From an uncultured cyanobacterium (GTDB lineage: Bacteria > Cyanobacteriota > Cyanobacteriia > Cyanobacteriales > Cyanobacteriaceae), in the NCBI GenBank assembly GCA_963749915.1, contig CAVVOP010000027.1, forward strand, positions 90,609-154,608: DNA of 64,000 nucleotides, in the 5' to 3' direction. Below, piece after piece: positions 30,113 to 53,635 of this stretch. A program made the position numbers and the translations under genes. The notes beneath the pieces were generated by a model. The model had not been told where the DNA came from. It saw only the letters and a list, made by a program, of their open reading frames with translations, and did not search any database. Each line of letters opens with the position of its first letter. The stretch's first letter is position 1.

Positions 30113-32327
30113 ATGAATCCGATTTTTGCTGATATTTTCGATGGCAATCTGTTGGACAATAACATCACTAACGGTGGTGTTCTTGATGATAATATTGTTC
30201 TCGACAATGGAAATGATACTTCCAACGGTGGCAGTGGCAACGATCTCATATATGGCATGGTGACGATTTGCTCTTCGGTGATACGGGGACGACTACCTCT
30301 TCGGTGGTGCCGGTACAGACACCTCAAGGGTAATGGGAACAACGACACTCTCAATGGTGGCGCGGGCAACGACTACCTCTACGGTGGCACGGGGGACGAT
30401 TCCCTCTTCGGTGACACGGGGGACGACTACCTCTTCGGTGGTGCCGTACAACACCTCAAATAATGGTAACGACTCGCTATTTGGAGGAAACGGCGACGAC
30501 TACATCGACGGCGGCAATACAATCACGCAGACATGGCGGAACAACGACCTCCTCCAGGGGGGCTACAACCGCGACACCCTCAACGGTGGCAATGGCAATG
30601 ACAGTCTCATTCCGGATGGCGTATATGCGACGACGTGATGTCTGGCAATGGCAATGACGATCGCTATGCCTATACCGCAGCCAACATCGGCGGATCCAGC
30701 GTGGGGGACCTCCTCAATGGCGACAGTGGCAACGACTTCATCTACGGAAGCGGCGGCAACGACACCGCTGATGGTGGTTCCGGCAATGATCTCGGTTAAT
30801 GGCGGCAATGGCAACGACCTCCTCCAGGGAGGCTTCAATCGCGACACCCTCAACGGTGGCAATGGCAATGACAGTCTCTATGCCTATACCGCAGCCAACA
30901 TCGGCGGATCCGGCGTAGGTGACGTCCTCAATGGCGACAGCGGCAACGACTTCATCTACGGAAGCGGCGGCAACGACACCGCTGATGGTGGCAACGGCGA
31001 TGACTACATAAGGCGGCAATGGCAACGACCTCCTCCAGGGGGGCTTCAACCGCGACACCCTCAACGGTGGCAATGGCAACGACAGTCTCTATGCCTATAC
31101 CGCAGCCAACATCAACGGATCCAGCGTGGGGGACGTCCTCAATGGCGACAGCGGCAACGACTTCATCTACGGAAGCGGCGGCAACGACACCGCTGATGGT
31201 GGTTCCGGCAATGACTTGATCGATGGCAGCAGTGGCAATGACAGTCTCATCGGCGGTTCTGGCCGTGACACCCTCAACGGTGGTGCTGGCAACGACATAT
31301 CACTTCGACGGCGACAGCGGTATTTACAATGGAGATGCTAGCGACGACGTGATGTACTCTGGCATTGGCGCCGAGACCATGGACGGCGGCTGCAGGAGTT
31401 GACTTGATCGACCACACCGCCTTCAATGGGGCTTACAGCTTCAACATGACAACGGGTCTGACGAACTTTGGCGGTGAACTCTTCACCAACTTCGAGAACG
31501 CCACCATGGGCAATGGCAATGACACCGTTATCGGCAACGCCTCTAACAACGTCATCAACAGCGGTGGGGGCAATGATACCCTCAACGGCGGTTCTGGCAA
31601 TGACATCTTGAACGGCGGCAATGGCAATGACAGTCTCTTGGGCGGTTCTGGCAATGACATCTTGACCGGTGGTGGAGACGGTCAAATTGATGTGCTGACC
31701 AGCGGTAGTTTCGCCGATCAGGATACCTTCGTACTTGGCACTGGTTTCATCTTTGGCCAGGTCCTCTATGACTCTGCCGGTAATGCTGATTATGCTCGAA
31801 TTACTGATTTTGACCTTATTGATTTTGTAGGGGAACTAGCAACCCAGGTCGATCGAATCCAGCTCAGAGGGTCAGCATCCGGCTATCGGTTACAAAATGG
31901 TATTAATAAATTAAAATAAAACGGTCAAATTGATGTGCTGACCAGCGGTAGTTTCGCCGATCAGGATACCTTCGTACTTGGCACTGGTTTCATCTTTGGC
32001 CAGGTCCTCTATGACTCTGCCGGTAATGCTGATTATGCTCGAATTACTGATTTTGACCTTATTAATTTTGCAGGGGAATTAGCAACCCAGGCCGATCGAA
32101 TCCAGCTCAGAGGGTCAGCATCCGACTATCGGTTAGTAAATAATCTTAATGTAGGGGGATTTATAGGAGTGGGTATTTATGACCGAAACGTAATTGCCAA
32201 TCCCTTTGATGACGATCTAATTGGTCTTGTTCAAGGGGTTACTGCAGGCAATGGTTTTGGGCAATTAAACCTAACCAACACAACTCAGTTCACATATGTA
32301 TCCACCGGTGTTATAATTCTCCCATAA
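30113..32327 (+). pseudogene. RTX (hemolysin-type) calcium-binding repeat protein; multiply frameshifted, C-terminal block duplicated
   Basis: Many GGxGxDxL nonapeptides spread over several frames; GC-rich; YD..G..DYARITDF C-terminal motif occurs twice. Confidence 0.8.
31678..32135 (+). repeat. 215-bp direct duplication (31678-31892 and 31921-32135)
   Basis: Identical except five transitions in the last ~70 bp; 28-bp AT-rich spacer containing a stop codon. Confidence 0.9.
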
Positions 32328-37014: not shown

Positions 37015-37833
37015 ATGTCTTCTTCTCAGTGGTTACGATTACTAAAAAATGTCGGTAATTGGCAAGGATCATTTACTGAATTTTCAGCCAATGGTGTTTT
37101 AATTAAAAATACCCCTACGGAGGTTAATTTAGAAGGTTTAAACGAGAATAAAACTATTAGATTGACGGTGGATCGTCTCGATAGTAATGATCCTCCTCAT
37201 GTTAACGAATTTACTTCTCTAAATCGTAATATTTTCCTATTTGAAGATGGACATTTTGCCAAAGGCACACAACAATTTAGTCCTTTTTCAATCTTTGGTG
37301 CTGAATTCGGCTTTTTTGCAAATGATCGCCGTTTACGCATGGTACAATTATTTGATAAAGAGAGTAACCTGGAACAAGTTACCTTAATTCGTGAATTTCG
37401 GGCTAATGGCAATGGTGTAGAGCGATCGCAGTTATCCATAGAGCAATTAGAGGGTCAATGGCAAGGAGAGGCTTTTACTTTATATCCTGATTGGCGCAAT
37501 ACAGAACCTTATTCTACTGATTTAATCATAAAAAAAGAAGGAGATCATGTAATTCAGACATTAAAAACTCCAGAATTAAACTTAACTTCTCAAGGAAAAA
37601 TTGATCATAATACTATTACTTTTTCCCGCAATAATACAGATATTAGACTTTTGTTATTACCCGATGGTGCATCATCTACAACACCCTTAAAAATCGAAAA
37701 TCGGCAATCTTTTTTTTTAGAATGTGCCTGGTTAATTGAACCTAATAAAAGATTGCGCTTAGTCCGACAATATGACGATAAAGGTGCTTGGGTTAATGTC
37801 TCTTTAGTCAAGGAAACTAAAATACTAATTTAA
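37015..37833 (+). CDS. DUF3598 family protein
   Basis: SQW..LLKNVG.WQGSFT, LIRE, LLPDG motifs. Confidence 0.8.
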   Translation: MSSSQWLRLLKNVGNWQGSFTEFSANGVLIKNTPTEVNLEGLNENKTIRLTVDRLDSNDPPHVNEFTSLNRNIFLFEDGHFAKGTQQFSPFSIFGAEFGFFANDRRLRMVQLFDKESNLEQVTLIREFRANGNGVERSQLSIEQLEGQWQGEAFTLYPDWRNTEPYSTDLIIKKEGDHVIQTLKTPELNLTSQGKIDHNTITFSRNNTDIRLLLLPDGASSTTPLKIENRQSFFLECAWLIEPNKRLRLVRQYDDKGAWVNVSLVKETKILI

Positions 37834-38084
37834 TAGAATAAAGCTATTACTGAGATCTTGCACCTTTGCTAAAAGCTCTAAAAATTTAGGTTTTAGGTTT
37901 TAGGTTAAGAAAAAAGAAGTAAATTCGAGTTATTGTGGGAAAAGTCCCCTTAATTCTTGTATATGATTTTAGTGTCAGAGAATTTGTTACAATAGTCCCA
38001 TCGAATACAAAGAAAACCATAAATTTTTTTTAGGGTAAAGATGGCAGCAAGTGGCTCTAAGAGAAAAAAATCTGTCTATCTTAA

Positions 38085-40313
<2,229 letters not shown>

Positions 40314-40552
40314 TCTCAGCGAAAAGGCTTTCGAGGGTGTCTAGAACAGCGATGAACTTTCTCTCGCAGTATTGGGGGTCAAAGTTCTTTTCGTGATGAT
40401 GAACGCTGCCGTCAAAAATATGGTATCTTTTGGGAAAAATATTCTGCTATTGTTCCTTATCGACTTGTTCCAGGTTTATGTTGGGATATCCCAACATAAG
40501 CATCATCTAGTTAAAGCCCTTTTTTACCATATAACAAAATCCATCTTGTATT

Positions 40553-41647
40553 ATGAAACGAGTAATAGTTATAGGAGCAGGACCAGCCGGTTCTGCAGCG
40601 GCAATGAGCCTCACAAAATTCTCAGATATCGAGGTAATTTTGCTTGATAAAGCTACTTTTCCTCGACGCAAAGTCTGCGGTAGTGGCCTCTCTCCCTGGA
40701 CTTTGCGTCTGCTTGATGAAATGGGAGTGGGTTCAATAATTCGCAAAGAAGCTTACCCTATTAAAGCAGGTATTATTGGTGGAACAGGGGGAACATCGGT
40801 TGAACTACGCAGCGATTATGAGGCGGCGGTACTATTACGCTCTCGATTGGATACTTTACTGGCTTATGAGGCAGATAAACGGGGTGCCAAACTAACTGAA
40901 GGTGTTCGCGTTCAAGAATTAATCTGGGACAATGAACGTTTGCTGGGGGCGAAAACTAATCAAGGAGAAATAGAGGCTGATGCCGTCATTGTTTGTAGTG
41001 GAGGGACAAGCAAGTTGGTTCAGGCTCAGCGTCACGGAAAAACTTTACGTGCCCTAATGGGATGGTACGAAGGTGTAACAGGTATTTCTGACGCTGTAGA
41101 AATCTACTTTGACCCCATGGTCAAACCCTACTATGGATGGGTGTTTCCCGAAGATAAAAATCGAGTCAATATCGGAATCTGTTACGATCCAGCCCTTGGT
41201 CACCTCAATGCAAAACAACGCTTTGAAGCCTTTATAGAAGGTCGTCTGGCTCTAAGGGTTAAATATGCCAGTCCTATTGATTATTTGATGGGACATCCCA
41301 TTGCCATTACCCACAAACCAACCGCACTGGTAGAGTCAGGAACTTTAATAGCTGGAGAGGCAGGCAATCTTGTAGATCCAGCAACGGCAGAAGGGATTCA
41401 TACTGCCCTTGCCAGCGGGATTATTGCTGGTGAATTTTTGGGTTCGCTTCTAGACCAGGGCGATTTACCCACTTTTGAGAATCTCTCACCCTATACGAAA
41501 TTAATTCAGCAAAAAATTGGCCCACGTCTAATGGCAGGTAATCTTTTTCGAGAAGTGGCGAAAACACCCATTTTGGATTTTGCTCTTCGTTTTGGTTCCT
41601 TTAAACCTGTAAAAAATGTTCTCAATTGGGCACTCACTGGTGCTTAG
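40553..41647 (+). CDS. geranylgeranyl reductase family FAD oxidoreductase
   Basis: GAGPAGS, DK..FPR.KVCG, YGWVFP, GEAG.LVDP...EGI. Confidence 0.85.
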   Translation: MKRVIVIGAGPAGSAAAMSLTKFSDIEVILLDKATFPRRKVCGSGLSPWTLRLLDEMGVGSIIRKEAYPIKAGIIGGTGGTSVELRSDYEAAVLLRSRLDTLLAYEADKRGAKLTEGVRVQELIWDNERLLGAKTNQGEIEADAVIVCSGGTSKLVQAQRHGKTLRALMGWYEGVTGISDAVEIYFDPMVKPYYGWVFPEDKNRVNIGICYDPALGHLNAKQRFEAFIEGRLALRVKYASPIDYLMGHPIAITHKPTALVESGTLIAGEAGNLVDPATAEGIHTALASGIIAGEFLGSLLDQGDLPTFENLSPYTKLIQQKIGPRLMAGNLFREVAKTPILDFALRFGSFKPVKNVLNWALTGA

Positions 41648-41737
41648 AGTATGCATCTGTTTTTATAATTTTGTCGCTCAATATGGACGCAAATACTACA
41701 AACTGTAAAATAATTTGAGATAAAGATTTTAAAATTT

Positions 41738-42754
41738 ATGAAAGTTCTAGTTACAGGTTCTTCCGGTCACTTAGGTGCAAATTTGGTGCGACGGCTACTA
41801 AAAGACGGGCACAGCATCCGCGTACTTCTACGGGAGGGCAATAATAACGCTGCGGTGGATGGGCTAGATGTGGAAAGAGTTTACGGTGACCTGCGGGATT
41901 TTTCTGGGACAAAATCAGCAGTCAGGGGATGCGATCGCATTTACCATTGTGCCGCCCAAGTTTCCACTTTGGATGGGGATCCCGTCTTTAGGCGAGAGAT
42001 TTACGAGTGCAATGTTTTAGGCACTATCCATATCCTCCAGGCCGCCTTGGAAACGGGTGTTGATAAAGTTGTGGTTTCTGGCTCGTTCAGTGCAGTGGGG
42101 CATAACCCTGAAAAACCTAGTAATGAAACAGTCCCTTTTTATCCTTTCTCGTCCCACTTACCTTACGGGTTTAGCAAAACTTTTGTCGAGCATGAGTGCC
42201 TCAAAGCCTTTGCCAATGGTCTGAATGTCGTTGTGGCTGTGTCCTGTGCTATTCTCGGTCCCCATGACTACAAACCGTCCCGTATGGGGCGCACACTTAT
42301 GGATTTTGCGAACAGTAAACTCACCGCCTACGTTCCTGGTGGTTTTGAGTTTGTTGCCGCTAGAGATATTGTCGAAGGACACATTCTGGCAATGTCCCAA
42401 GGACGACCTGGACAAAAATACATCTTTAGTAGCCAGTTTCTCACCGTTGATGAATTGATGGACATATTTGAGGACGTTACAGGTCGCGATCGCCCGCGTT
42501 TAAGAATTCCGGGGGCAGTGATGACGAGGATCGCAGGAGTTGCGGATTTTGTCTTACCCCGATTTTTCCCCAACATACCAAGACGCTTTACCTCCGGTGC
42601 TGTTCGTATCCTGCGGATGCATCGCCGTGCCGATATTAGTAAAGCTAAAAACGAGCTAGGATATCAACCAACCAATATTAAAGCTGGCATACAATCAGCC
42701 TATGATGATTTTCTTCGCAGAGGTTTAATTACGTCTGCGGGAAAAAATACTTAA
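41738..42754 (+). CDS. extended SDR (3beta-HSD/HpnA/SdmB-like NAD(P)-dependent reductase)
   Basis: TGSSGHLG, YHCAA, YGFSK (YxxxK). Confidence 0.85.
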   Translation: MKVLVTGSSGHLGANLVRRLLKDGHSIRVLLREGNNNAAVDGLDVERVYGDLRDFSGTKSAVRGCDRIYHCAAQVSTLDGDPVFRREIYECNVLGTIHILQAALETGVDKVVVSGSFSAVGHNPEKPSNETVPFYPFSSHLPYGFSKTFVEHECLKAFANGLNVVVAVSCAILGPHDYKPSRMGRTLMDFANSKLTAYVPGGFEFVAARDIVEGHILAMSQGRPGQKYIFSSQFLTVDELMDIFEDVTGRDRPRLRIPGAVMTRIAGVADFVLPRFFPNIPRRFTSGAVRILRMHRRADISKAKNELGYQPTNIKAGIQSAYDDFLRRGLITSAGKNT

Positions 42755-42785
42755 CTTACCCCAAACAAAACTTGAGCTAACTAAC

Positions 42786-44150
42786 ATGACCACCAGTGCA
42801 ATCAATGTCAAAAAAACACCTCCGGTTTTGCGAGGAGGCTTACCCTATCTAGGATATGCCCTAGAGTTACAGAGCAACCCCATTGATTTCCTGCAAAGAG
42901 GACAGAAGCAATTTGGGGAAATTTTCTCGTTTTTATTGGCGGGCTCTAAGGTAACATTTTTAACGGGGTCTAAAGCCAACGAAGCATTTTTTCGTGCCCC
43001 CGATGACCAATTTAGTCAAAAAGAGGCTTATCAATTCACTGTCCCGATTTTTGGTAGGGGAATTGCTTACGACACCACTCCTGATCGGATGAGCGAGCAG
43101 CTTGGCTTTGTCTTTCCCGCACTAAGGGAAGAACGGATGCAAGCCTATGCTGGATTTATGGCCACAGAAGCTCAAGCCTATTTTGACACTTGGGGAGAGT
43201 CAGGAGAAAGAGATCTGCTCACCGCTATGAATGAATTAACGGTGTTTATTGCTAGCCGTTGCCTGATTGGCCATGAGTTTCGACAGCACCTCAGCACAGA
43301 GTTTGCCCATTTGTATCACGACTTGGAACGCGGGATCAATCTGCTGGCTTTCTTTCAACCCTATCTACCCTTACCTTCTTTTCGGCGACGGGACAAAGCT
43401 CGCGTGCGGATGGTGGAACTTATTTCCCAAATTATTGCTAATCGAAGAGCCAGGGGTAGTGAGGGCGAGGATTTCTTGCAAGCCCTGATGAACGCTCGTT
43501 ATGCCGATAGTACAGCCCTGTCAGACGATGATATAACAGGCATATTACTGACACTACTGTTTGCTGGTCAACATACCAGTGCGGTGTTAGCTGCCTGGAC
43601 GGGTATTTTACTATTGCAGAACCCGCAGTATCTACCGGCGATTATGGCCGAACAACAGGCAGTTTTTGATGAGAGCCAAACCTTTTCCCTTGAAGCGTTA
43701 CGGCAACTGGTGGTTTTGGAGCGATCAATTAAAGAAGCAGAACGACTGCGACCACCTTTAATCATGCTGATGCGGAAAGTATTGCGTGACTTTGAATACA
43801 ATGGTTATCACGTCCCTGCGGGGGGGCTAGCAATGGTTTCTCCCGCCGTCTCTCACCGACTGCCTGAGTGCTTCCATCTTCCCCATAGCTATGATCCAGA
43901 TCGATTTACTCCTGAACGAGCAGAAGACAGCAAATCTCCTTACACACTGATCGGTTTTGGCGGTGGCAGACACCGCTGTATCGGCCAAGCATTTGCTTAC
44001 CAACAGGTTAAGGTAATTGGGACGGTGTTACTGCGACAGTTTGACCTGGAGTTAGTACATCAAAACTATGAGCCAGATTACACCACCTTTGTTGTGGGAC
44101 CGCGCCAACCTTGTCTAGTACGCTATAGACGTAAACATAAATCCTATTAA
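42786..44150 (+). CDS. cyp51: cytochrome P450, CYP51 (sterol 14alpha-demethylase)-like, soluble
   Basis: AYQFTVPIFGRGIAYD (B'/B-C region), FAGQHTS (I helix), EAERLRPP (K helix), FGGGRHRCIG (heme). Confidence 0.85.
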   Translation: MTTSAINVKKTPPVLRGGLPYLGYALELQSNPIDFLQRGQKQFGEIFSFLLAGSKVTFLTGSKANEAFFRAPDDQFSQKEAYQFTVPIFGRGIAYDTTPDRMSEQLGFVFPALREERMQAYAGFMATEAQAYFDTWGESGERDLLTAMNELTVFIASRCLIGHEFRQHLSTEFAHLYHDLERGINLLAFFQPYLPLPSFRRRDKARVRMVELISQIIANRRARGSEGEDFLQALMNARYADSTALSDDDITGILLTLLFAGQHTSAVLAAWTGILLLQNPQYLPAIMAEQQAVFDESQTFSLEALRQLVVLERSIKEAERLRPPLIMLMRKVLRDFEYNGYHVPAGGLAMVSPAVSHRLPECFHLPHSYDPDRFTPERAEDSKSPYTLIGFGGGRHRCIGQAFAYQQVKVIGTVLLRQFDLELVHQNYEPDYTTFVVGPRQPCLVRYRRKHKSY

Positions 44151-44166
44151 TTTTAACAATCAGATT

Positions 44167-45306
44167 ATGAGAGCCTTGACACAGAATTACCAACAAGTAA
44201 CTGCACCACAACAACATCGTCCCCCATCATTCACAGAGGCGAAAAATCGCCGCCAAAAAGTGCGTGCAGCGGGGATGAATCCAGATTACTGGTATGCTGT
44301 TGAGTATGACCATGCCATTAAGCCAGGACAGGTAGTTGAGGTGAAGTTTTGGAATATTTCCATTGCTTTGTATCGTGGACAAAATGGTCAACTAGTCGCT
44401 CTAGAAAATCGCTGTGCCCACCGTCAACTGGCACTTTCTTTAGGTCAAGTCGAGGGCGATCGCTTGGTCTGCTGTTACCACGGCTGGACTTACAATCAGG
44501 AAGGGAAAGTCGTTGATATCCCCCACGACCTTTTTGATAAACCAATGCCAGTGTGTAAGATCCTTACCTATCCGGTGAAAGTACGCTACGGGCTAATTTG
44601 GATTTTCCCTGGCGACTCCACATTGGCTGAAAAGAAACAAATTCCCGAGATCCCTGAGTTAGAAGGAAAAGACCGTTGGGCGTGCATACCACTCGATTTT
44701 ACTTGGGAAGCACATCACTCGATGATTATTGATAATGTCAGCGATTTCACCCACGCTTATCTGCATCGCCAGTACCGACCCTTCACTGATGCCAAGTTGA
44801 CAAAGTGTCGGGAAGAGGGAGATAAGGTCCTCGTCAGTTACGAAACCAAAGTTGGTACCGGTAGAATTTCTGGACTGTTCGTTGACCGTAAGCGGGTTAA
44901 TACCAACTCGATGGAGCTTTGTTATGAGTATCCTTACCAGTGGTCAAATACCGACGGCAAAATAAAGCATTGGTGCTTTCTTTTACCTATCAATGAACAA
45001 ATGACTCGTGTATTCTTCCTCTTCTACTTTGATGCCTTGATCATTCCTTTGACAGGGATTAAGATTCCGCAATGGCTGATGACTCTGGTACTGAAAATTG
45101 CTAATCCACTTTTGATTAAGCCGCTTCTCAGCCAAGATGGAGTTGCTCTTGAAGCAGAGCAAAAGGGCTATAATGCTCACTTCAAGGCACCTATCATTGA
45201 GCTTAATCCGGCCGTGCACTTGTTCCAGCTATTAACAATTCGCAAGTGGGAAGAACACTTGGCTATCGACACTCCCACCCAATATTGCACAGATCAAGAA
45301 ACATGA
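44167..45306 (+). CDS. Rieske non-heme iron oxygenase (SdmA-like candidate)
   Basis: CAH...CCYH Rieske ligands; NVSDFTHAYLH and QD mononuclear-iron motif. Confidence 0.85.
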   Translation: MRALTQNYQQVTAPQQHRPPSFTEAKNRRQKVRAAGMNPDYWYAVEYDHAIKPGQVVEVKFWNISIALYRGQNGQLVALENRCAHRQLALSLGQVEGDRLVCCYHGWTYNQEGKVVDIPHDLFDKPMPVCKILTYPVKVRYGLIWIFPGDSTLAEKKQIPEIPELEGKDRWACIPLDFTWEAHHSMIIDNVSDFTHAYLHRQYRPFTDAKLTKCREEGDKVLVSYETKVGTGRISGLFVDRKRVNTNSMELCYEYPYQWSNTDGKIKHWCFLLPINEQMTRVFFLFYFDALIIPLTGIKIPQWLMTLVLKIANPLLIKPLLSQDGVALEAEQKGYNAHFKAPIIELNPAVHLFQLLTIRKWEEHLAIDTPTQYCTDQET

Positions 45307-45313
45307 AAGAAAC

Positions 45314-45383
45314 CTAGTGGTCTGTCAAGATAGTTTTGAGGGACTGAGAACGGATAATTTTGGATTTTGGATTTTGGATTTTG
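45314..45383. repeat. dispersed IS/MITE-end repeat plus (TTTTGGA)n
   Basis: Inverted copy of 13500-13555, immediately after the Rieske gene. Confidence 0.8.
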
Positions 45384-45437
45384 GAGGATTGTTTTACTAT
45401 TTATTCAGGGAGTCCTAAATACTATTATGGCAATTCT

Positions 45438-46352
45438 ATGAAAAAGTTAACTAGGTTAATCGAGAATATTAAGGAGATTTTTAGTTTTGGTTTTTTTGCA
45501 TCGTCCCCAAGCAGATTATTCTTGACCATTTTACTTACACCGTCGTTATTTTTCTGTTCTATGAAGCAAGAATCTGTGATCAAGCAAGAATCTATGATTA
45601 AGCAAGAAATAGATCAATCTCCTATTAATATCTTAATCCCACTTTATTCCTACCCAACTTGGTATAATCCAGAAACTTATCTTTGGACCAAAATAGCTAA
45701 ATCTGCAACTCAAATACCGATCACTGCCGTGATTAATCCTAATAATGGACCAGATGGTGGACCTCCCAATAAAGATTATGTTAGGGGCCTTGAAGATTTA
45801 CGTACAGCGGGTGTCACCATTTTTGGTTATGTTGCCACTAATTACGGTAATCGTAGTTTAACTGAAGTTAAATCAGATATCGATTTATATCATAAATACT
45901 ACAATATTAAAGGCATTTTTTTGGACGAAGCCGCTAGTAATGAGAACAAACTTAACTACTACCAAGAAATTTATCAATACATTAAAAATAAATCTAATTT
46001 ATATACCGTAGTTCTAAATCAAGGAACCCAAACTGATGAAGGTTATCTTAGTCTTCCGGCAACGGATATCAGTGTCATTTTCGAGAACTATTCTCAACCT
46101 TGGCTGGGATACGAAAGTAAACCTTATTTAAATAAATATGATAGAAAACGTTTTTCGATTTTAATTCATACAGTTCCTGATATAGCTACAATGAAAAGTC
46201 ATATTGATTTGGCTCTGAAACGCAATATAGGTTACATTTATATAACTGACGATAGTCCAGATAGTCCAGATCAAGACCCTTGGAATAGTCTTCCTTCTTA
46301 TTGGGAAGCAGAGGTGAATTATCTTCAAGAAGTCTTTTCCAAACGAAAATGA
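45438..46352 (+). CDS. spherulation-specific family 4 protein (GH135, Sph3-like)
   Basis: PLYSYP, INPNNGP, GYV.T.Y, GIFLDE, NQGT, IFEN; probable start ATG at 45438. Confidence 0.85.
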   Translation: MKKLTRLIENIKEIFSFGFFASSPSRLFLTILLTPSLFFCSMKQESVIKQESMIKQEIDQSPINILIPLYSYPTWYNPETYLWTKIAKSATQIPITAVINPNNGPDGGPPNKDYVRGLEDLRTAGVTIFGYVATNYGNRSLTEVKSDIDLYHKYYNIKGIFLDEAASNENKLNYYQEIYQYIKNKSNLYTVVLNQGTQTDEGYLSLPATDISVIFENYSQPWLGYESKPYLNKYDRKRFSILIHTVPDIATMKSHIDLALKRNIGYIYITDDSPDSPDQDPWNSLPSYWEAEVNYLQEVFSKRK

Positions 46353-49594: not shown

Positions 49595-52500
49595 ATGACG
49601 GTTATTGGTGATATCGATCTTAATGGTGATTTAACTGACTGGAGTGATTCATATCGTTTAGATTATCTACCCGGAACAGGAGTAGAAGGATATGAGCTCT
49701 ATGGTAAATATACAGGAGATAACTATGTATTTGCTCTGAAACTAGACCCAACTGCAACATCCATAAACCAGATTGGAACATTTACAACCTTTTGGTTCAA
49801 TACTGACCAAAATACCAGTACGGGTTATCCTATCTTTGGTTATGCTGGTGGGGCAGAATATAACGTTAATTTCTTTACCGATAATCAACCCTATCTTTAC
49901 ACAGGAGCGGCTGGAGAGATTTTTCAGATGGGACCCCTTGCCCATGCCTACAATAGCGATCAGACCATCGTAGAATTTGCTGTTCCTGCCAATATTATTG
50001 GCAATCCAAGTGCGATTGACGTGTATGCCGATGTGAATGACACCACGTTTTTGCCAAAATCTTATGCCCTCGACAAGTACACCGTTTCCTCAGTTCCCCC
50101 TGATCTCTTACCAACCCGCACCGACCCTACCAACAAAAAAATTGGAATAGTTTATTCTGAAACCAGCGCCAACCAATATTTCAGCAAGACGGCATATTCG
50201 CAATTATTTATGTCGATTCAAGAGGAAGCGATGATGGCCGGGATTCCCTTTGACCTGCTGACGGAAGCAGACTTGAAGGATATAAATAAGCTGGTCAACT
50301 ACGACACGCTGGTATTTCCTTTCTTCCAAAATGTTAACAAGGCAGATTTGCAGTCGATTGAAGACAACCTGACCAATCTTATTTACAAGTCCGGTACCAG
50401 CATTATTGCGGCCGGCAATTTCATGACCAATGATGAAACCGGCGTGGCATTGCCAGACGCTTACAGCCGCATGAATACGCTGCTCAATTTGCAGCCTCAA
50501 GCCTTTGGTACCAGTACGATTTCGCTTACTAATGGCTCCAACCCAGTGTTGCCGGGATATACAGCCCCAGTGTTGAAGGGATATACAGCCGGTGAGACCA
50601 TCCGTACCTACAATCCTCAGGGGTGGAATGTCTTCAGCAGTGTGGATCCCACTAAAACGACGACGCTGGTCAACCAAACTGTGAGTGTTGGTACGGAACC
50701 TGCGGTCGTCGCCACACAGGTCACCCCAACCAGTGGCAATAATGTTCACTTCGCAACGGAAGCTTATCTGGGAGACACCAATCTCCTCTGGCAGGCCCTG
50801 CAATGGACAACCTACGACGGCCAACCTTCCCTCGAGTTGAGCTTGACTCGTAATAACAGTCTCTTCCTGTCTCGTAATGACATGGATATTTCCCAGGAGG
50901 CTGCTGCGGTTAAACCTGCTGATAATACACCTGGCATTTACGATCGCCTGCTGCCCATTCTGGATCAGTGGAAAGAGGCTTATAACTTTGTCGGCTCTTA
51001 CTACATCAACATTGGGAACAATCCTCCTGACGAATACACCGATTGGTCGGTCTCCAAACCTTACTACAATGCCATGCTGGCGGCAGGTAATGAAATTGGG
51101 ACTCATTCCAATACCCATTTTTATGATTATCAAGGCTATAACCCTCCCGAAAACACCAACATTGCCACGGATGCACAGCTTGAGTTTGAGTTTAACCAAT
51201 CCAAGCAAGTCATTGAACAAAATCTTGGCATTAAAGTGACGGGTGCAGCATTACCCGGTGCACCAGAAACCCTGGAAACGGCTCAGAAAATTATTCAGTA
51301 CTTTGATTACATCTCTGGGGGATACTCCGGAGTTGGCGCAGGTTATCCCAATGCTTTTGGCTATTTAACACCGGAACAGACATCAGTTTACCTGGCCCCA
51401 AACCTCTACTTTGACTTCACCATGATTGAGTTCGGCATTCCAGTTTACGATGCTACGACAGGAACCTATGTGCCTAAAAAGCTCAATGCTACTGAGGCGG
51501 AACAAGAGTGGATTAATCAGTTCAATAGCCTGAACAACCATGCCAATAAGCCGATTGCGGTGATGCCCTGGCACGACTACGGGGCAACCAACTGGGAGAA
51601 CGGAGGCTACACCACAGATATGTTCACGAGTTTGATTCAAACAGCATATAACAGTGGTGCAGAATTTGTCACTCTCGACGATGCCAGCCGACGCATTAAA
51701 GCCTTTGAGCAATCCAACCTGCAAATTGTCAATAGCTCCAACACTTTAATCACGGCAACGGCGACTCCTGCCGCTGGCACCAGCCTAGGTAAGTTTAGTC
51801 TGGATCTGGGCACAGGTTACATGATTAAGAATGTCACCAACTGGTATGCCTACAACGACAACTCGGTTCTTCTGCCAACCAATGGCGGCACCTTCGGGAT
51901 CAACCTGGGTGGAACCCCTGATGATATTACCCACATTACTGACTTACCGATGCGATCGGAACTTCTTTCCTTAACTGGAAATGGCGAAGATTTGAGCTTC
52001 ACCATGATTGGAGATGGCCAAGTGAAAGTAGATTTGAAGGAGCCGACGGGCTTAAAGCTAACGGTCAAAGGGGCCGACAGCTACAGCCTGTCAGGGGAAA
52101 TTCTCACCCTTAATTTCAACCCTTCTATCAATTACCTCAGTCCCCTGGTTGCACGCAACGTCAGTGTTGATTTGGGCCCTGATATGCCTCCGGTAGTTGC
52201 TAATCCGATTGCTGATTTTACTGTCAATGAAGATGCTCCCAGCATCATAATTGACCTGAACCAGGTTTTCAACGATCCCGACGACCCCTTGATTGTGAAA
52301 TCAGTTTTAAGCAACAGTAATCCAGCACTGGTTTCGACTTCACTCAATGGCAATCTTCTGACCCTGGGCTATCTAAAAGACCAGTTTGGTACGGCTGACA
52401 TCACAATTCGGGGAACTTCTGGAGGAAACTTTGTAGACGATACCTTTAAGATAAATGTTGCCTCGGTGGATGATGCACCCACTGTTGCTACTCCCATTGC

Positions 52501-53635
52501 TGATGTTAGTGTGGAGCAAAATGCTACCCCAACGACCATCAATTTGGGCAATGTCTTCACTGATGTTGATAACGATGTCACTGCCATTGTTAAAACAGTA
52601 CAAGCAAACAGCAATTCCGGGTTAGTCACTGCTACTGTTAATGGTAATAATCTTATCCTGAACTACCAGTCAAATCAATTTGGTACAGCGGATATTACAG
52701 TTCGGGCGACATCCAACGGTGAAACTGTCGATGATACCTTTATTGTGACAGTACAACCCCTGGGTAATGTGATCAACGGAACTAATCGCCGAGATGATTT
52801 TAAGGGTACTAGTGGGCGAGACATTATCAATGTTTTTGGCGGCGACGACAAAATTGATGCTAAAGAAGGCAATGATCTTGTCTATGCAGGGACTGGAGAT
52901 GATGAACTCAAGGGTGATAAAGGGAATGATATTATCTACGGTGAGGCAGGCAAAGACAAGCTTGATGGTGGGGATGACAATGATCTGCTCTATGGGGGTG
53001 CTGGAGATGATAAACTCAAGGGTGATAAAGGGAATGACACCCTTGATGGGGGGGTAGGTAACGACGAGCTTGATGGTGAGGATGACAATGATCTGCTCTA
53101 TGGGGGTACTGGAGATGATGAACTCAAGGGGGATAAAGGGAATGACACCCTTGATGGGGGGGTAGGTAACGACGAGCTTGATGGTGAGGATGACAATGAT
53201 CTGCTCTATGGGGGTGCAGGTAGCGATGAGTTAGACGGTGGAAAGGGTAAAGATACACTGATAGGTGTTGATCCAACCAGTATCCTGGCAGGCCGAGGTG
53301 AAATTGACATCTTAAAAGGAAAAGAAGACGATGATCTCTTTATTCTGGGAGATACAAATCGAGTTTATTACGATGATGGCATTTCGGGTAATGCAGGGCA
53401 AAGTGATTATGCCTTAATTGAGGATTTCGAGAGTAAAGATGGCGATCGCGTTCAGCTCCGGGGTGATGCTTCCAACTATGTCCTGGAGGATGCTCCTAGG
53501 GGGTTACCTGGTGGCACTGCTATTTACTTCATCACTGGCACTACTAATGAACTGATTGGCGTTGTTAAGGGTGTTGATGTCGATGAATTGTTCCTGAACA
53601 GTACGAATATGTTCACCTTCGTTCCAGTAACATAA
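49595..53635 (+). CDS. large secreted polysaccharide deacetylase-domain protein with Ig/cadherin-like and RTX repeats
   Basis: RNDMD and EIGTHSNTH (NodB-like); two ~97-aa P.VA.PIAD..V...A repeats; GGxGxD repeats at 52850-53250. Confidence 0.8.
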   Translation: MTVIGDIDLNGDLTDWSDSYRLDYLPGTGVEGYELYGKYTGDNYVFALKLDPTATSINQIGTFTTFWFNTDQNTSTGYPIFGYAGGAEYNVNFFTDNQPYLYTGAAGEIFQMGPLAHAYNSDQTIVEFAVPANIIGNPSAIDVYADVNDTTFLPKSYALDKYTVSSVPPDLLPTRTDPTNKKIGIVYSETSANQYFSKTAYSQLFMSIQEEAMMAGIPFDLLTEADLKDINKLVNYDTLVFPFFQNVNKADLQSIEDNLTNLIYKSGTSIIAAGNFMTNDETGVALPDAYSRMNTLLNLQPQAFGTSTISLTNGSNPVLPGYTAPVLKGYTAGETIRTYNPQGWNVFSSVDPTKTTTLVNQTVSVGTEPAVVATQVTPTSGNNVHFATEAYLGDTNLLWQALQWTTYDGQPSLELSLTRNNSLFLSRNDMDISQEAAAVKPADNTPGIYDRLLPILDQWKEAYNFVGSYYINIGNNPPDEYTDWSVSKPYYNAMLAAGNEIGTHSNTHFYDYQGYNPPENTNIATDAQLEFEFNQSKQVIEQNLGIKVTGAALPGAPETLETAQKIIQYFDYISGGYSGVGAGYPNAFGYLTPEQTSVYLAPNLYFDFTMIEFGIPVYDATTGTYVPKKLNATEAEQEWINQFNSLNNHANKPIAVMPWHDYGATNWENGGYTTDMFTSLIQTAYNSGAEFVTLDDASRRIKAFEQSNLQIVNSSNTLITATATPAAGTSLGKFSLDLGTGYMIKNVTNWYAYNDNSVLLPTNGGTFGINLGGTPDDITHITDLPMRSELLSLTGNGEDLSFTMIGDGQVKVDLKEPTGLKLTVKGADSYSLSGEILTLNFNPSINYLSPLVARNVSVDLGPDMPPVVANPIADFTVNEDAPSIIIDLNQVFNDPDDPLIVKSVLSNSNPALVSTSLNGNLLTLGYLKDQFGTADITIRGTSGGNFVDDTFKINVASVDDAPTVATPIADVSVEQNATPTTINLGNVFTDVDNDVTAIVKTVQANSNSGLVTATVNGNNLILNYQSNQFGTADITVRATSNGETVDDTFIVTVQPLGNVINGTNRRDDFKGTSGRDIINVFGGDDKIDAKEGNDLVYAGTGDDELKGDKGNDIIYGEAGKDKLDGGDDNDLLYGGAGDDKLKGDKGNDTLDGGVGNDELDGEDDNDLLYGGTGDDELKGDKGNDTLDGGVGNDELDGEDDNDLLYGGAGSDELDGGKGKDTLIGVDPTSILAGRGEIDILKGKEDDDLFILGDTNRVYYDDGISGNAGQSDYALIEDFESKDGDRVQLRGDASNYVLEDAPRGLPGGTAIYFITGTTNELIGVVKGVDVDELFLNSTNMFTFVPVT

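Follow-up and report, generated by a model that had tools for sequence, protein, structure and literature searches.

Sterols serve as biomarkers of eukaryotes, a use of the sterane record that becomes less secure with each bacterial lineage able to produce sterols that are 4-desmethyl and saturated at C-24. Whether cyanobacteria synthesise sterols de novo is not yet settled. The closest described system is a 21-kb cluster of sterol genes in Calothrix sp. NIES-4105 (Lee, Wei and Welander 2023, Nat Commun, PMC10202945), in a report that lists eight cyanobacteria with such sterol genes. The oxidosqualene cyclase (OSC) of NIES-4105 yields lanosterol in E. coli, and its SdmA and SdmB proteins together strip both C-4 methyl groups from lanosterol in E. 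coli, whereas the SdmA/SdmB pair of methanotrophs removes one methyl (PMC10202945). In acid-hydrolysed biomass of NIES-4105, sterols including cholesterol were seen, and production then ceased (PMC10202945). The GGR homolog Bsr from Sandaracinus amylolyticus was shown to reduce C-24 in lysates, and Bsr homologs adjoin sterol genes in several cyanobacteria (Lee and Welander 2025, J Bacteriol, PMC12004948). Here we describe a cassette of four genes of this kind at positions 40553-45306 of a 64,000-nucleotide stretch of DNA (the window) from contig C27 (CAVVOP010000027.1) of an uncultured cyanobacterium.

We think it likely that these four genes form the downstream half of a pathway of cyanobacterial type that was acquired by horizontal transfer and that makes cholesterol-type sterols de novo. 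Photosystem II genes for CP47 and CP43 in the genome mark the host as a cyanobacterium. The cluster type is already published and the genes are an ortholog set of that system; this is therefore a new carrier and not a new kind of biology. What is new here is modest: the host lineage, a three-way split of the cluster with legible scars, and an added DHCR7-like gene. The initial annotation of the window, made from the sequence alone, had named the Bsr reductase and the Calothrix cluster, and both are real (in the 2025 and 2023 reports, respectively). Its proposal of a post-cyclisation sterol module holds.

Genes of the cassette and their families

The cassette consists of four intact open reading frames (ORFs), all on the + strand and separated by intergenic gaps of 90, 31 and 16 bp, and is probably one operon. 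The initial annotation had described them as co-oriented, tightly spaced genes of the GGR, extended short-chain dehydrogenase/reductase (SDR), CYP51 and Rieske families, and matches in NCBIfam and the PDB bear out all four assignments. A scan of window positions 37800-45800 gave eight promoter-like sites (10.5 expected) and seven terminator-like sites (9.8 expected), numbers that carry no information, and nothing in Rfam matched across the window.

The first gene (40553-41647, + strand) encodes a Bsr-like flavoenzyme of 364 aa, a candidate sterol side-chain C-24 reductase. It passes the cut-off of the GGR-family model TIGR02032 (165 bits vs 158.8) and has the FAD motif GAGPAG (residues 8-13), Cys42 in VCGSG, and YGWVFP (194-199), an intact motif of the YxWxFP type. 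These are the GGR-family motifs named in PMC12004948; the protein shares the catalytic Cys and YxWxFP with Bsr of S. amylolyticus, along with the family and a neighbourhood of sterol genes. It is 89% identical to the product of a gene that adjoins SdmB in Calothrix rhizosoleniae SC01 (L006 7833-8924) and that, judging by gene numbering, appears to be the C. rhizosoleniae entry in Table S2 of PMC12004948. Among the 120 matches listed, which do not include the assayed S. amylolyticus enzyme, are proteins from Myxococcales and Polyangiaceae that share 46-55% identity with it.

The second gene (41738-42754, + strand) encodes an SdmB-like extended SDR of 338 aa, a putative partner in C-4 demethylation with predicted 3-dehydrogenase/decarboxylase and ketoreductase steps. 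Its top NCBIfam match was SdmB (NF052578; 327 bits, full length), followed by the hopanoid-associated epimerase HpnA (236 bits). It has an NAD(P)-binding glycine motif (GSSGHLG, 7-13) and the catalytic YxxxK (YGFSK, 143-147).

The third gene (42786-44150, + strand) encodes a CYP51 of 454 aa, a predicted sterol 14-alpha-demethylase. It matched PF00067 at 216 bits and has the heme-thiolate Cys motif FGGGRHRCIG (391-400). The stretches YQFTVPIFGRGIAYD (82-96) and AGQHTS (260-265) are what we take to be the CYP51 signatures of helix B' and helix I. The top PDB structures (7jj1, 6mi0 and 6mcw) are all named Cytochrome P450 51 (E = 1e-130, 440 bits). The listed CYP51 chains scored 212-440 bits, and all listed chains above 200 bits are CYP51 or sterol 14-alpha-demethylase by name, bar one plain 'Cytochrome P450'; the first clearly different family, CYP120, scored 159 bits. 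Another P450 of this genome, a paralog, shares 26% identity with it. The best solved match, over residues 10-450, was to 7jj1 and 6mcw, presumably the CYP51 of Methylococcus capsulatus. The 6mcw chain has 551 residues, and the window protein aligns to residues 7-448 of it and lacks its C-terminal extension, which we take to be a ferredoxin domain; the window CYP51 is without a ferredoxin fusion. In a tree of CYP51 proteins it fell in the cyanobacterial CYP51 clade (support 99/95).

The fourth gene (44167-45306, + strand) encodes an SdmA-like Rieske oxygenase of 379 aa, a predicted C-4 methyl oxidase. Its top NCBIfam match was SdmA (NF052579; 407 bits), with the next family at 31 bits, a margin of 376 bits. 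It has the Rieske 2Fe-2S motif CAH...CCYH (83-105) and the mononuclear iron site DNVSDFTHAYLH (189-200). The SdmA and SdmB proteins of M. capsulatus belong to the same two families, Rieske and extended SDR, and the models, whose names carry a methanotroph tag (Mthl), match full length; the homologs from Methyloprofundus are only 44-48% identical to the window proteins. The two genes are separated by CYP51 in the window, and their products form a pair of the Calothrix type, unlike the one-methyl pair of methanotrophs.

Sterol cyclase genes on a second contig and contiguous clusters in relatives

The first half of the pathway was found on another contig, C8. The cyclase and the squalene epoxidase are absent from the 64-kb window, as the initial annotation had said. 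The 731-aa ORF directly upstream of the cassette (38118-40313) was considered as a hidden cyclase and ruled out, as it is the catalase-peroxidase KatG (1335 bits). A whole-genome family search returned two cyclases, one OSC and one squalene-hopene cyclase (SHC), both on C8. The OSC matched TIGR03463 at 718 bits and human lanosterol synthase (1w6k) at E = 9e-138, and its catalytic motif VSDCTAE is intact. Directly upstream is a squalene epoxidase (SMO; PF08491, 100.6 bits), and the pair occupies C8:691709-695003. Annotation of C8:683000-702000 placed both in a block of five adjacent, co-oriented genes (C8:690573-696621) in the order ERG24-SMO-OSC-ERG2-Rieske, with a GC content of 41-47%. The ERG4/ERG24 reductase scored 251 bits and the ERG2-type C-8 isomerase 200 bits. 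The Rieske protein of this block has the KshA C-terminal domain (KshA_C) and matched KshA at E = 2e-40; its look-alikes from a language-model search are automatically named 'cholesterol 7-desaturase family', which we treat as a lead only.

Because squalene epoxidase and OSC are both on C8, the genome is equipped to make the sterol ring. The initial annotation had suggested a search of the genome for osc, smo and shc, and all three were on C8. It had left two options, that the cyclase lies elsewhere in the genome or that the cassette remodels scavenged sterols, as a new lifestyle; the first is borne out by the SMO and OSC genes and the second found no support. A cassette that tailors eukaryote sterols (lanosterol, cycloartenol or 4-methylsterols) with no endogenous pathway would fit the lack of a cyclase within 64 kb and the physical separation from the OSC locus. 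It does not fit a genome that encodes a squalene epoxidase together with an OSC whose VSDCTAE motif is intact, nor the common origin of the OSC block and the cassette, which are joined in relatives and fall in the same clade; in addition, the neighbourhood of the cassette showed no genes for sterol uptake. We consider scavenging very improbable.

The OSC product is most likely lanosterol; the stretches around the specificity residues of the protein are nearly identical to those of the NIES-4105 OSC (17 of 17 and 10 of 12 residues, with the compared position unchanged). It has V at the position of human V453 and H at that of human C449, positions that we take to be the product-specificity residues of OSC.

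The presence of the SHC raised another alternative, that the cassette enzymes act on hopanoids or another cyclic triterpenoid from the host and not on sterols. The HpnA match of the window SDR is in line with this, although its score is lower than that for SdmB and is under HpnA's own cut-off (367.65 bits). The CYP51 match is to a sterol-specific P450 family, orthologs act on lanosterol (PMC10202945), and the SHC (C8:448654-450603; TIGR01507, 895 bits) has a host-like GC content of 39.6% and is 240 kb from the OSC locus. Based on these results, we regard tailoring of a non-sterol triterpenoid as highly unlikely.

In relatives, the genes on C8 and those in the window are parts of one cluster. 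We scanned species-representative genomes with the window CYP51 protein, and 19 loci were returned. In C. rhizosoleniae SC01 (L006) and the metagenome-assembled genome (MAG) of Rivularia sp. MS3 (L011), all nine genes are in one cluster, in the order ERG24-SMO-OSC-ERG2-Rieske-EXPERA-GGR-SdmB-CYP51-SdmA, where the EXPERA/EBP-family gene encodes 166 aa. The nine proteins here are 69-90% identical to those of SC01 and MS3. The backbone of the cluster in Calothrix sp. NIES-4105 (L010) is the same, with identities of 51-76% (OSC 65%, SdmA 76% and SdmB 72%). Three Hormoscilla MAGs are without the Rieske, EXPERA and GGR genes. Gene content, internal order and common descent are thus shared between this genome and the cluster type of NIES-4105, SC01, MS3 and Hormoscilla; the relatives have a single cluster of 12-21 kb, whereas here the genes are in three loci on two contigs. 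Only a fragment of EXPERA is left here, unlike in SC01 and MS3, and the extra DHCR7-like gene is absent from the four relatives searched for it.

The longer form of the cluster is ancestral. In Hormoscilla sp. GUM202 (L007 8607-8870), a single 88-aa frame fuses Rieske residues 5-43 (67% identity) to GGR residues 309-347 (79% identity). This frame is the scar of a deletion, by which Rieske, EXPERA and Bsr disappeared from the longer cluster in Hormoscilla.

Two of the other clusters differ in their own ways. In NIES-4105 the gene orthologous to the window GGR is split between three frames (L010 5623-8369), and after it come a different gene of the GGR family, of 427 aa, and then a 299-aa methyltransferase. 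The start of the latter resembles sterol methyltransferases, and we take it to be SMT-like. An SMT-like methyltransferase and a second GGR are features of NIES-4105, and neither is in the sterol loci here. The 427-aa GGR is the Bsr homolog listed at 24% identity in PMC12004948. In SC01, a 374-aa Cupin_8/JmjC-like gene (L006 5875-6996) lies between Rieske and EXPERA; it is not there in Rivularia MS3.

The window genes and the C8 block have one origin. In trees of CYP51, SdmA, SdmB, OSC and ERG24, this genome was inside the same cyanobacterial clade in all five, and Rokubacteria, Planctomycetota, Myxococcota and methanotrophs were outside it. The clade contained NIES-4105 in every tree but that of ERG24, a quick version built without NIES-4105. 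The P450 is thus inside the CYP51 clade and SdmA and SdmB are inside sterol-cluster clades, in agreement with what the initial annotation had predicted of them. Because the genes are joined in relatives' clusters and fall in the same clade, the two halves have a common origin and the split is secondary. Pairwise ratios of nonsynonymous to synonymous substitution rates (dN/dS) were 0.06-0.27 for all nine genes against three relatives, at a dS of 0.5-1.3. These values indicate that all nine genes have been under purifying selection and that no sampled relative is the direct donor.

Dispersal over three loci and the probable horizontal acquisition of the genes

The sterol genes in this genome are at three loci on two contigs (C8:690573-696621, C8:510275-511746 and C27:131161-135914), not in the single contiguous cluster seen in relatives. 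The second of these loci holds an intact ERG4/ERG24-family gene that is DHCR7-like (C8:510451-511746), and immediately upstream of it is an EXPERA pseudogene, a frameshifted fragment that covers residues ~12-51. Further upstream than the EXPERA remnant are a fragment of an ISL3-family transposase (202 aa, C8:508401-509009) and several dispersed repeats.

To the left of the cassette, at its very edge, the window retains the last ~41 codons of a DHCR7-like gene (40356-40479, + strand). The ERG4/ERG24 family search detected it as a PF01222 match at C27:130994-131086. Within it, 96 bp (window 40384-40479) are 95% identical in nucleotide sequence to C8:511646-511741, the 3' end of the intact gene; the likeness ends exactly at the last codon and extends at the protein level over 41 residues at 76% identity. 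The remnant ends 74 bp upstream of the GGR start, and likeness to the relatives' clusters begins ~10 bp before GGR. Because there is a DHCR7-like remnant near GGR and an EXPERA pseudogene beside the DHCR7-like gene, the three loci were once joined. The simplest reading of these scars has two stages. In the first, the DHCR7-like gene would have sat between Rieske and GGR, having replaced most of EXPERA; in the second, later rearrangements would have dispersed its parts to three places. A single cut does not account for the 96-bp duplicate and its 5% divergence.

Both outer ends of the former cluster carry the same host repeat. This repeat resembles a miniature inverted-repeat transposable element (MITE); its terminal inverted repeat is CTAGTGGTCTGTCAA, and a TTTTGGA run lies inside it. 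It had 50 BLAST matches in the genome, 26 of them of at least 60 bp. One copy is 5' of ERG24 (C8:690422-690516), and another, in the same orientation, is directly 3' of SdmA at the right edge of the cassette (window 45312-45396, + strand), truncated and without its right arm. The repeat was not found in relatives' sterol loci. Copies shared at 96-99% identity are on C27, C8, C22 and other contigs, which argues that C27 and C8 are from the same organism.

The break-up of the cluster suggested that the genes might be a decaying or silent relic, in which sterols are no longer made and genes are intact only through recency. The three loci, the frameshifted EXPERA, the dead 96-bp remnant upstream of GGR, the transposase fragment near the DHCR7-like locus and the MITEs at the edges could all be read in this way, as could two features of NIES-4105, which ceased sterol production in culture (PMC10202945) and has a broken ortholog of the window GGR. 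Yet the nine cluster genes and the DHCR7-like gene are full-length with intact cofactor motifs, and operon-like internal order is kept in each fragment. The low dN/dS also argues against a relic, though pairwise values are compatible with very recent relaxation. The lost EXPERA, an EBP-family gene with what we take to be an isomerase role, duplicates the retained ERG2. We therefore consider a relic unlikely, and we favor a pathway whose genes stay intact though the cluster has been physically broken up.

The cassette differs in composition from its host. Its GC content is 46.0% (45.2-47.7% for the individual genes), 8.5 points above the 37.5% of the 4.69-Mb genome, in keeping with the impression in the initial annotation that it was more GC-rich; the flanking BFA1 and Spherulin4-like genes have 34.3% and 33.4% GC. 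The relatives' clusters are mostly within 0-2 points of their flanks, and that of NIES-4105 is 5 points above. We found no CYP51 ortholog in any of 60 relatives (6 from the genus, 13 from the family and 41 from the order of the host), among which the best match had 34% identity, and the cassette DNA had no match in any of the six same-genus genomes. SdmA-like matches occurred in 15 of 400 sampled cyanobacteria, all at no more than 36% identity. The raised GC, the lack of orthologs in relatives and the absence from same-genus genomes fit a comparatively recent horizontal transfer, from an unsampled cyanobacterial donor of ~44-47% GC. The presence of the genes in a small-genome lineage whose sampled relatives are without them points to recent transfer between cyanobacteria. 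A comparison with the six same-genus genomes defined no insertion site: gene order near the window varies within the genus, and the genes downstream of the cassette are strain-specific as well.

Proposed pathway, the DHCR7-like reductase and the surroundings of the cassette

We infer the enzymatic steps, their order, the final product and expression in this organism from gene content and from the published relatives. Squalene would come from the host, which also has the SHC. The C8 squalene epoxidase would epoxidise it, and the adjoining OSC would cyclise the product, most likely to lanosterol. The window CYP51 would then remove the 14-alpha-methyl group and the C8 ERG24 reduce the resulting delta-14 bond; SdmA and SdmB of the window would remove the C-4 methyls, probably both; and the Bsr-like GGR would saturate the C-24 double bond of the side chain. 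ERG2 of the C8 block would move delta-8 to delta-7, giving lathosterol-type sterols, and the KshA-like Rieske protein and the DHCR7-like reductase may carry the product on towards delta-5 sterols. The window genes would work in trans with the other two loci.

Several observations weigh against this pathway. Both SdmB-like and SdmA-like proteins of the window score below the equivalog cut-offs of their models (327 vs 600 bits for NF052578 and 407 vs 600 bits for NF052579). No redox partner for CYP51 or SdmA was identified, and there was no convincing gene for an ERG3-type or other C-5 desaturase in the genome. The fragmented cluster and the EXPERA pseudogene could mark decay. With 34 contigs and 2.09% contamination, the assembly is possibly a metagenome bin. 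The sequencing runs that hold the stretch were six of DNA and none of RNA; the six are all sediment metagenomes, from three studies. The C. rhizosoleniae protein in Table S2 of PMC12004948 is ~34% identical to the assayed S. amylolyticus Bsr, and no cyanobacterial member was among those assayed there. Lastly, sterol output was inconsistent in NIES-4105, the only cultured cyanobacterium tested in PMC10202945, and the authors call the result inconclusive. We nevertheless believe that synthesis of cholesterol-type sterols is the likely role of these genes.

Logan contigs from four of the runs, of 82-633 bases, are near-identical to the cassette, and none bridges a whole junction. At the left edge, one (X3) spans 40489-40758 and another (X1) spans 40272-40442 with small indels.

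The DHCR7-like reductase would extend the predicted product towards cholesterol. Its assignment comes from the names of its relatives and from paralogy, and we therefore call the protein DHCR7-like. It is 31% identical to the cluster ERG24 and 53% identical to a protein of Minicystis rosea that is itself only 28% identical to the cluster ERG24. Its closest database relatives, at 60-67% identity, are mostly named 7-dehydrocholesterol reductase where they are named, and these names are automatic. The PDB does not separate the two reductases, as both match 4quv (227 and 257 bits). The gene has a host-like GC content of 38.0%. A second ERG4/ERG24 gene was absent from all four relatives' genomes searched, and none of the 400 sampled cyanobacterial genomes had any ERG4/ERG24 match. 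Supplementary Data 1 of the 2023 report (PMC10202945) has no entries for its cyanobacteria in the 7-dehydroreductase and C-5 desaturase columns.

De novo synthesis of delta-5 sterols (cholesterol) by a so far undescribed route is a tentative and rather doubtful extension of the pathway, in which DHCR7-type delta-7 reduction would be combined with C-5 desaturation by a KshA/Neverland-like Rieske protein. The cluster Rieske would replace the di-iron C-5 desaturase of the ERG3 type, and the DHCR7-type gene, of a kind not otherwise reported in cyanobacteria, would have been acquired separately from the rest of the cluster. If true, the former place of the DHCR7-like gene between Rieske and Bsr would mark a cluster remodelled towards a fuller cholesterol pathway. 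Two FA_hydroxylase genes were considered for the C-5 desaturase, and neither is accepted as a sterol desaturase. That at C11:25956-26732 belongs to a family found at 60-87% identity across many cyanobacterial genera, and that at C2:12149-12964 had a weak OlsE-like match and no PDB relative. Neither gene had a match in five same-genus genomes, and both have raised GC (42.8% for C2 and 46.2% for C11); the C2 gene adjoins a phage-type integrase.

The KatG gene next to the cassette has 58.6% GC in this 37.5% GC genome, and katG genes elsewhere in four same-genus genomes have only 66-70% nucleotide identity to the window copy. Between BFA1 and KatG (window 37834-37968) is a member of a second short repeat family of ~115 bp, with ~10 copies at 83-98% identity. 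Downstream of the cassette, the strain-specific stretch encodes a protein of 1346 aa that combines RTX repeats with a polysaccharide deacetylase domain (window 49595-53635), the Spherulin4-like protein, a 604-aa protein without a family and an epimerase/dehydratase. A GC-rich region further upstream (window 30113-31919; 53-54% GC) has several short ORFs in different frames, all with RTX calcium-binding repeats, and looks like a fragmented repeat protein.

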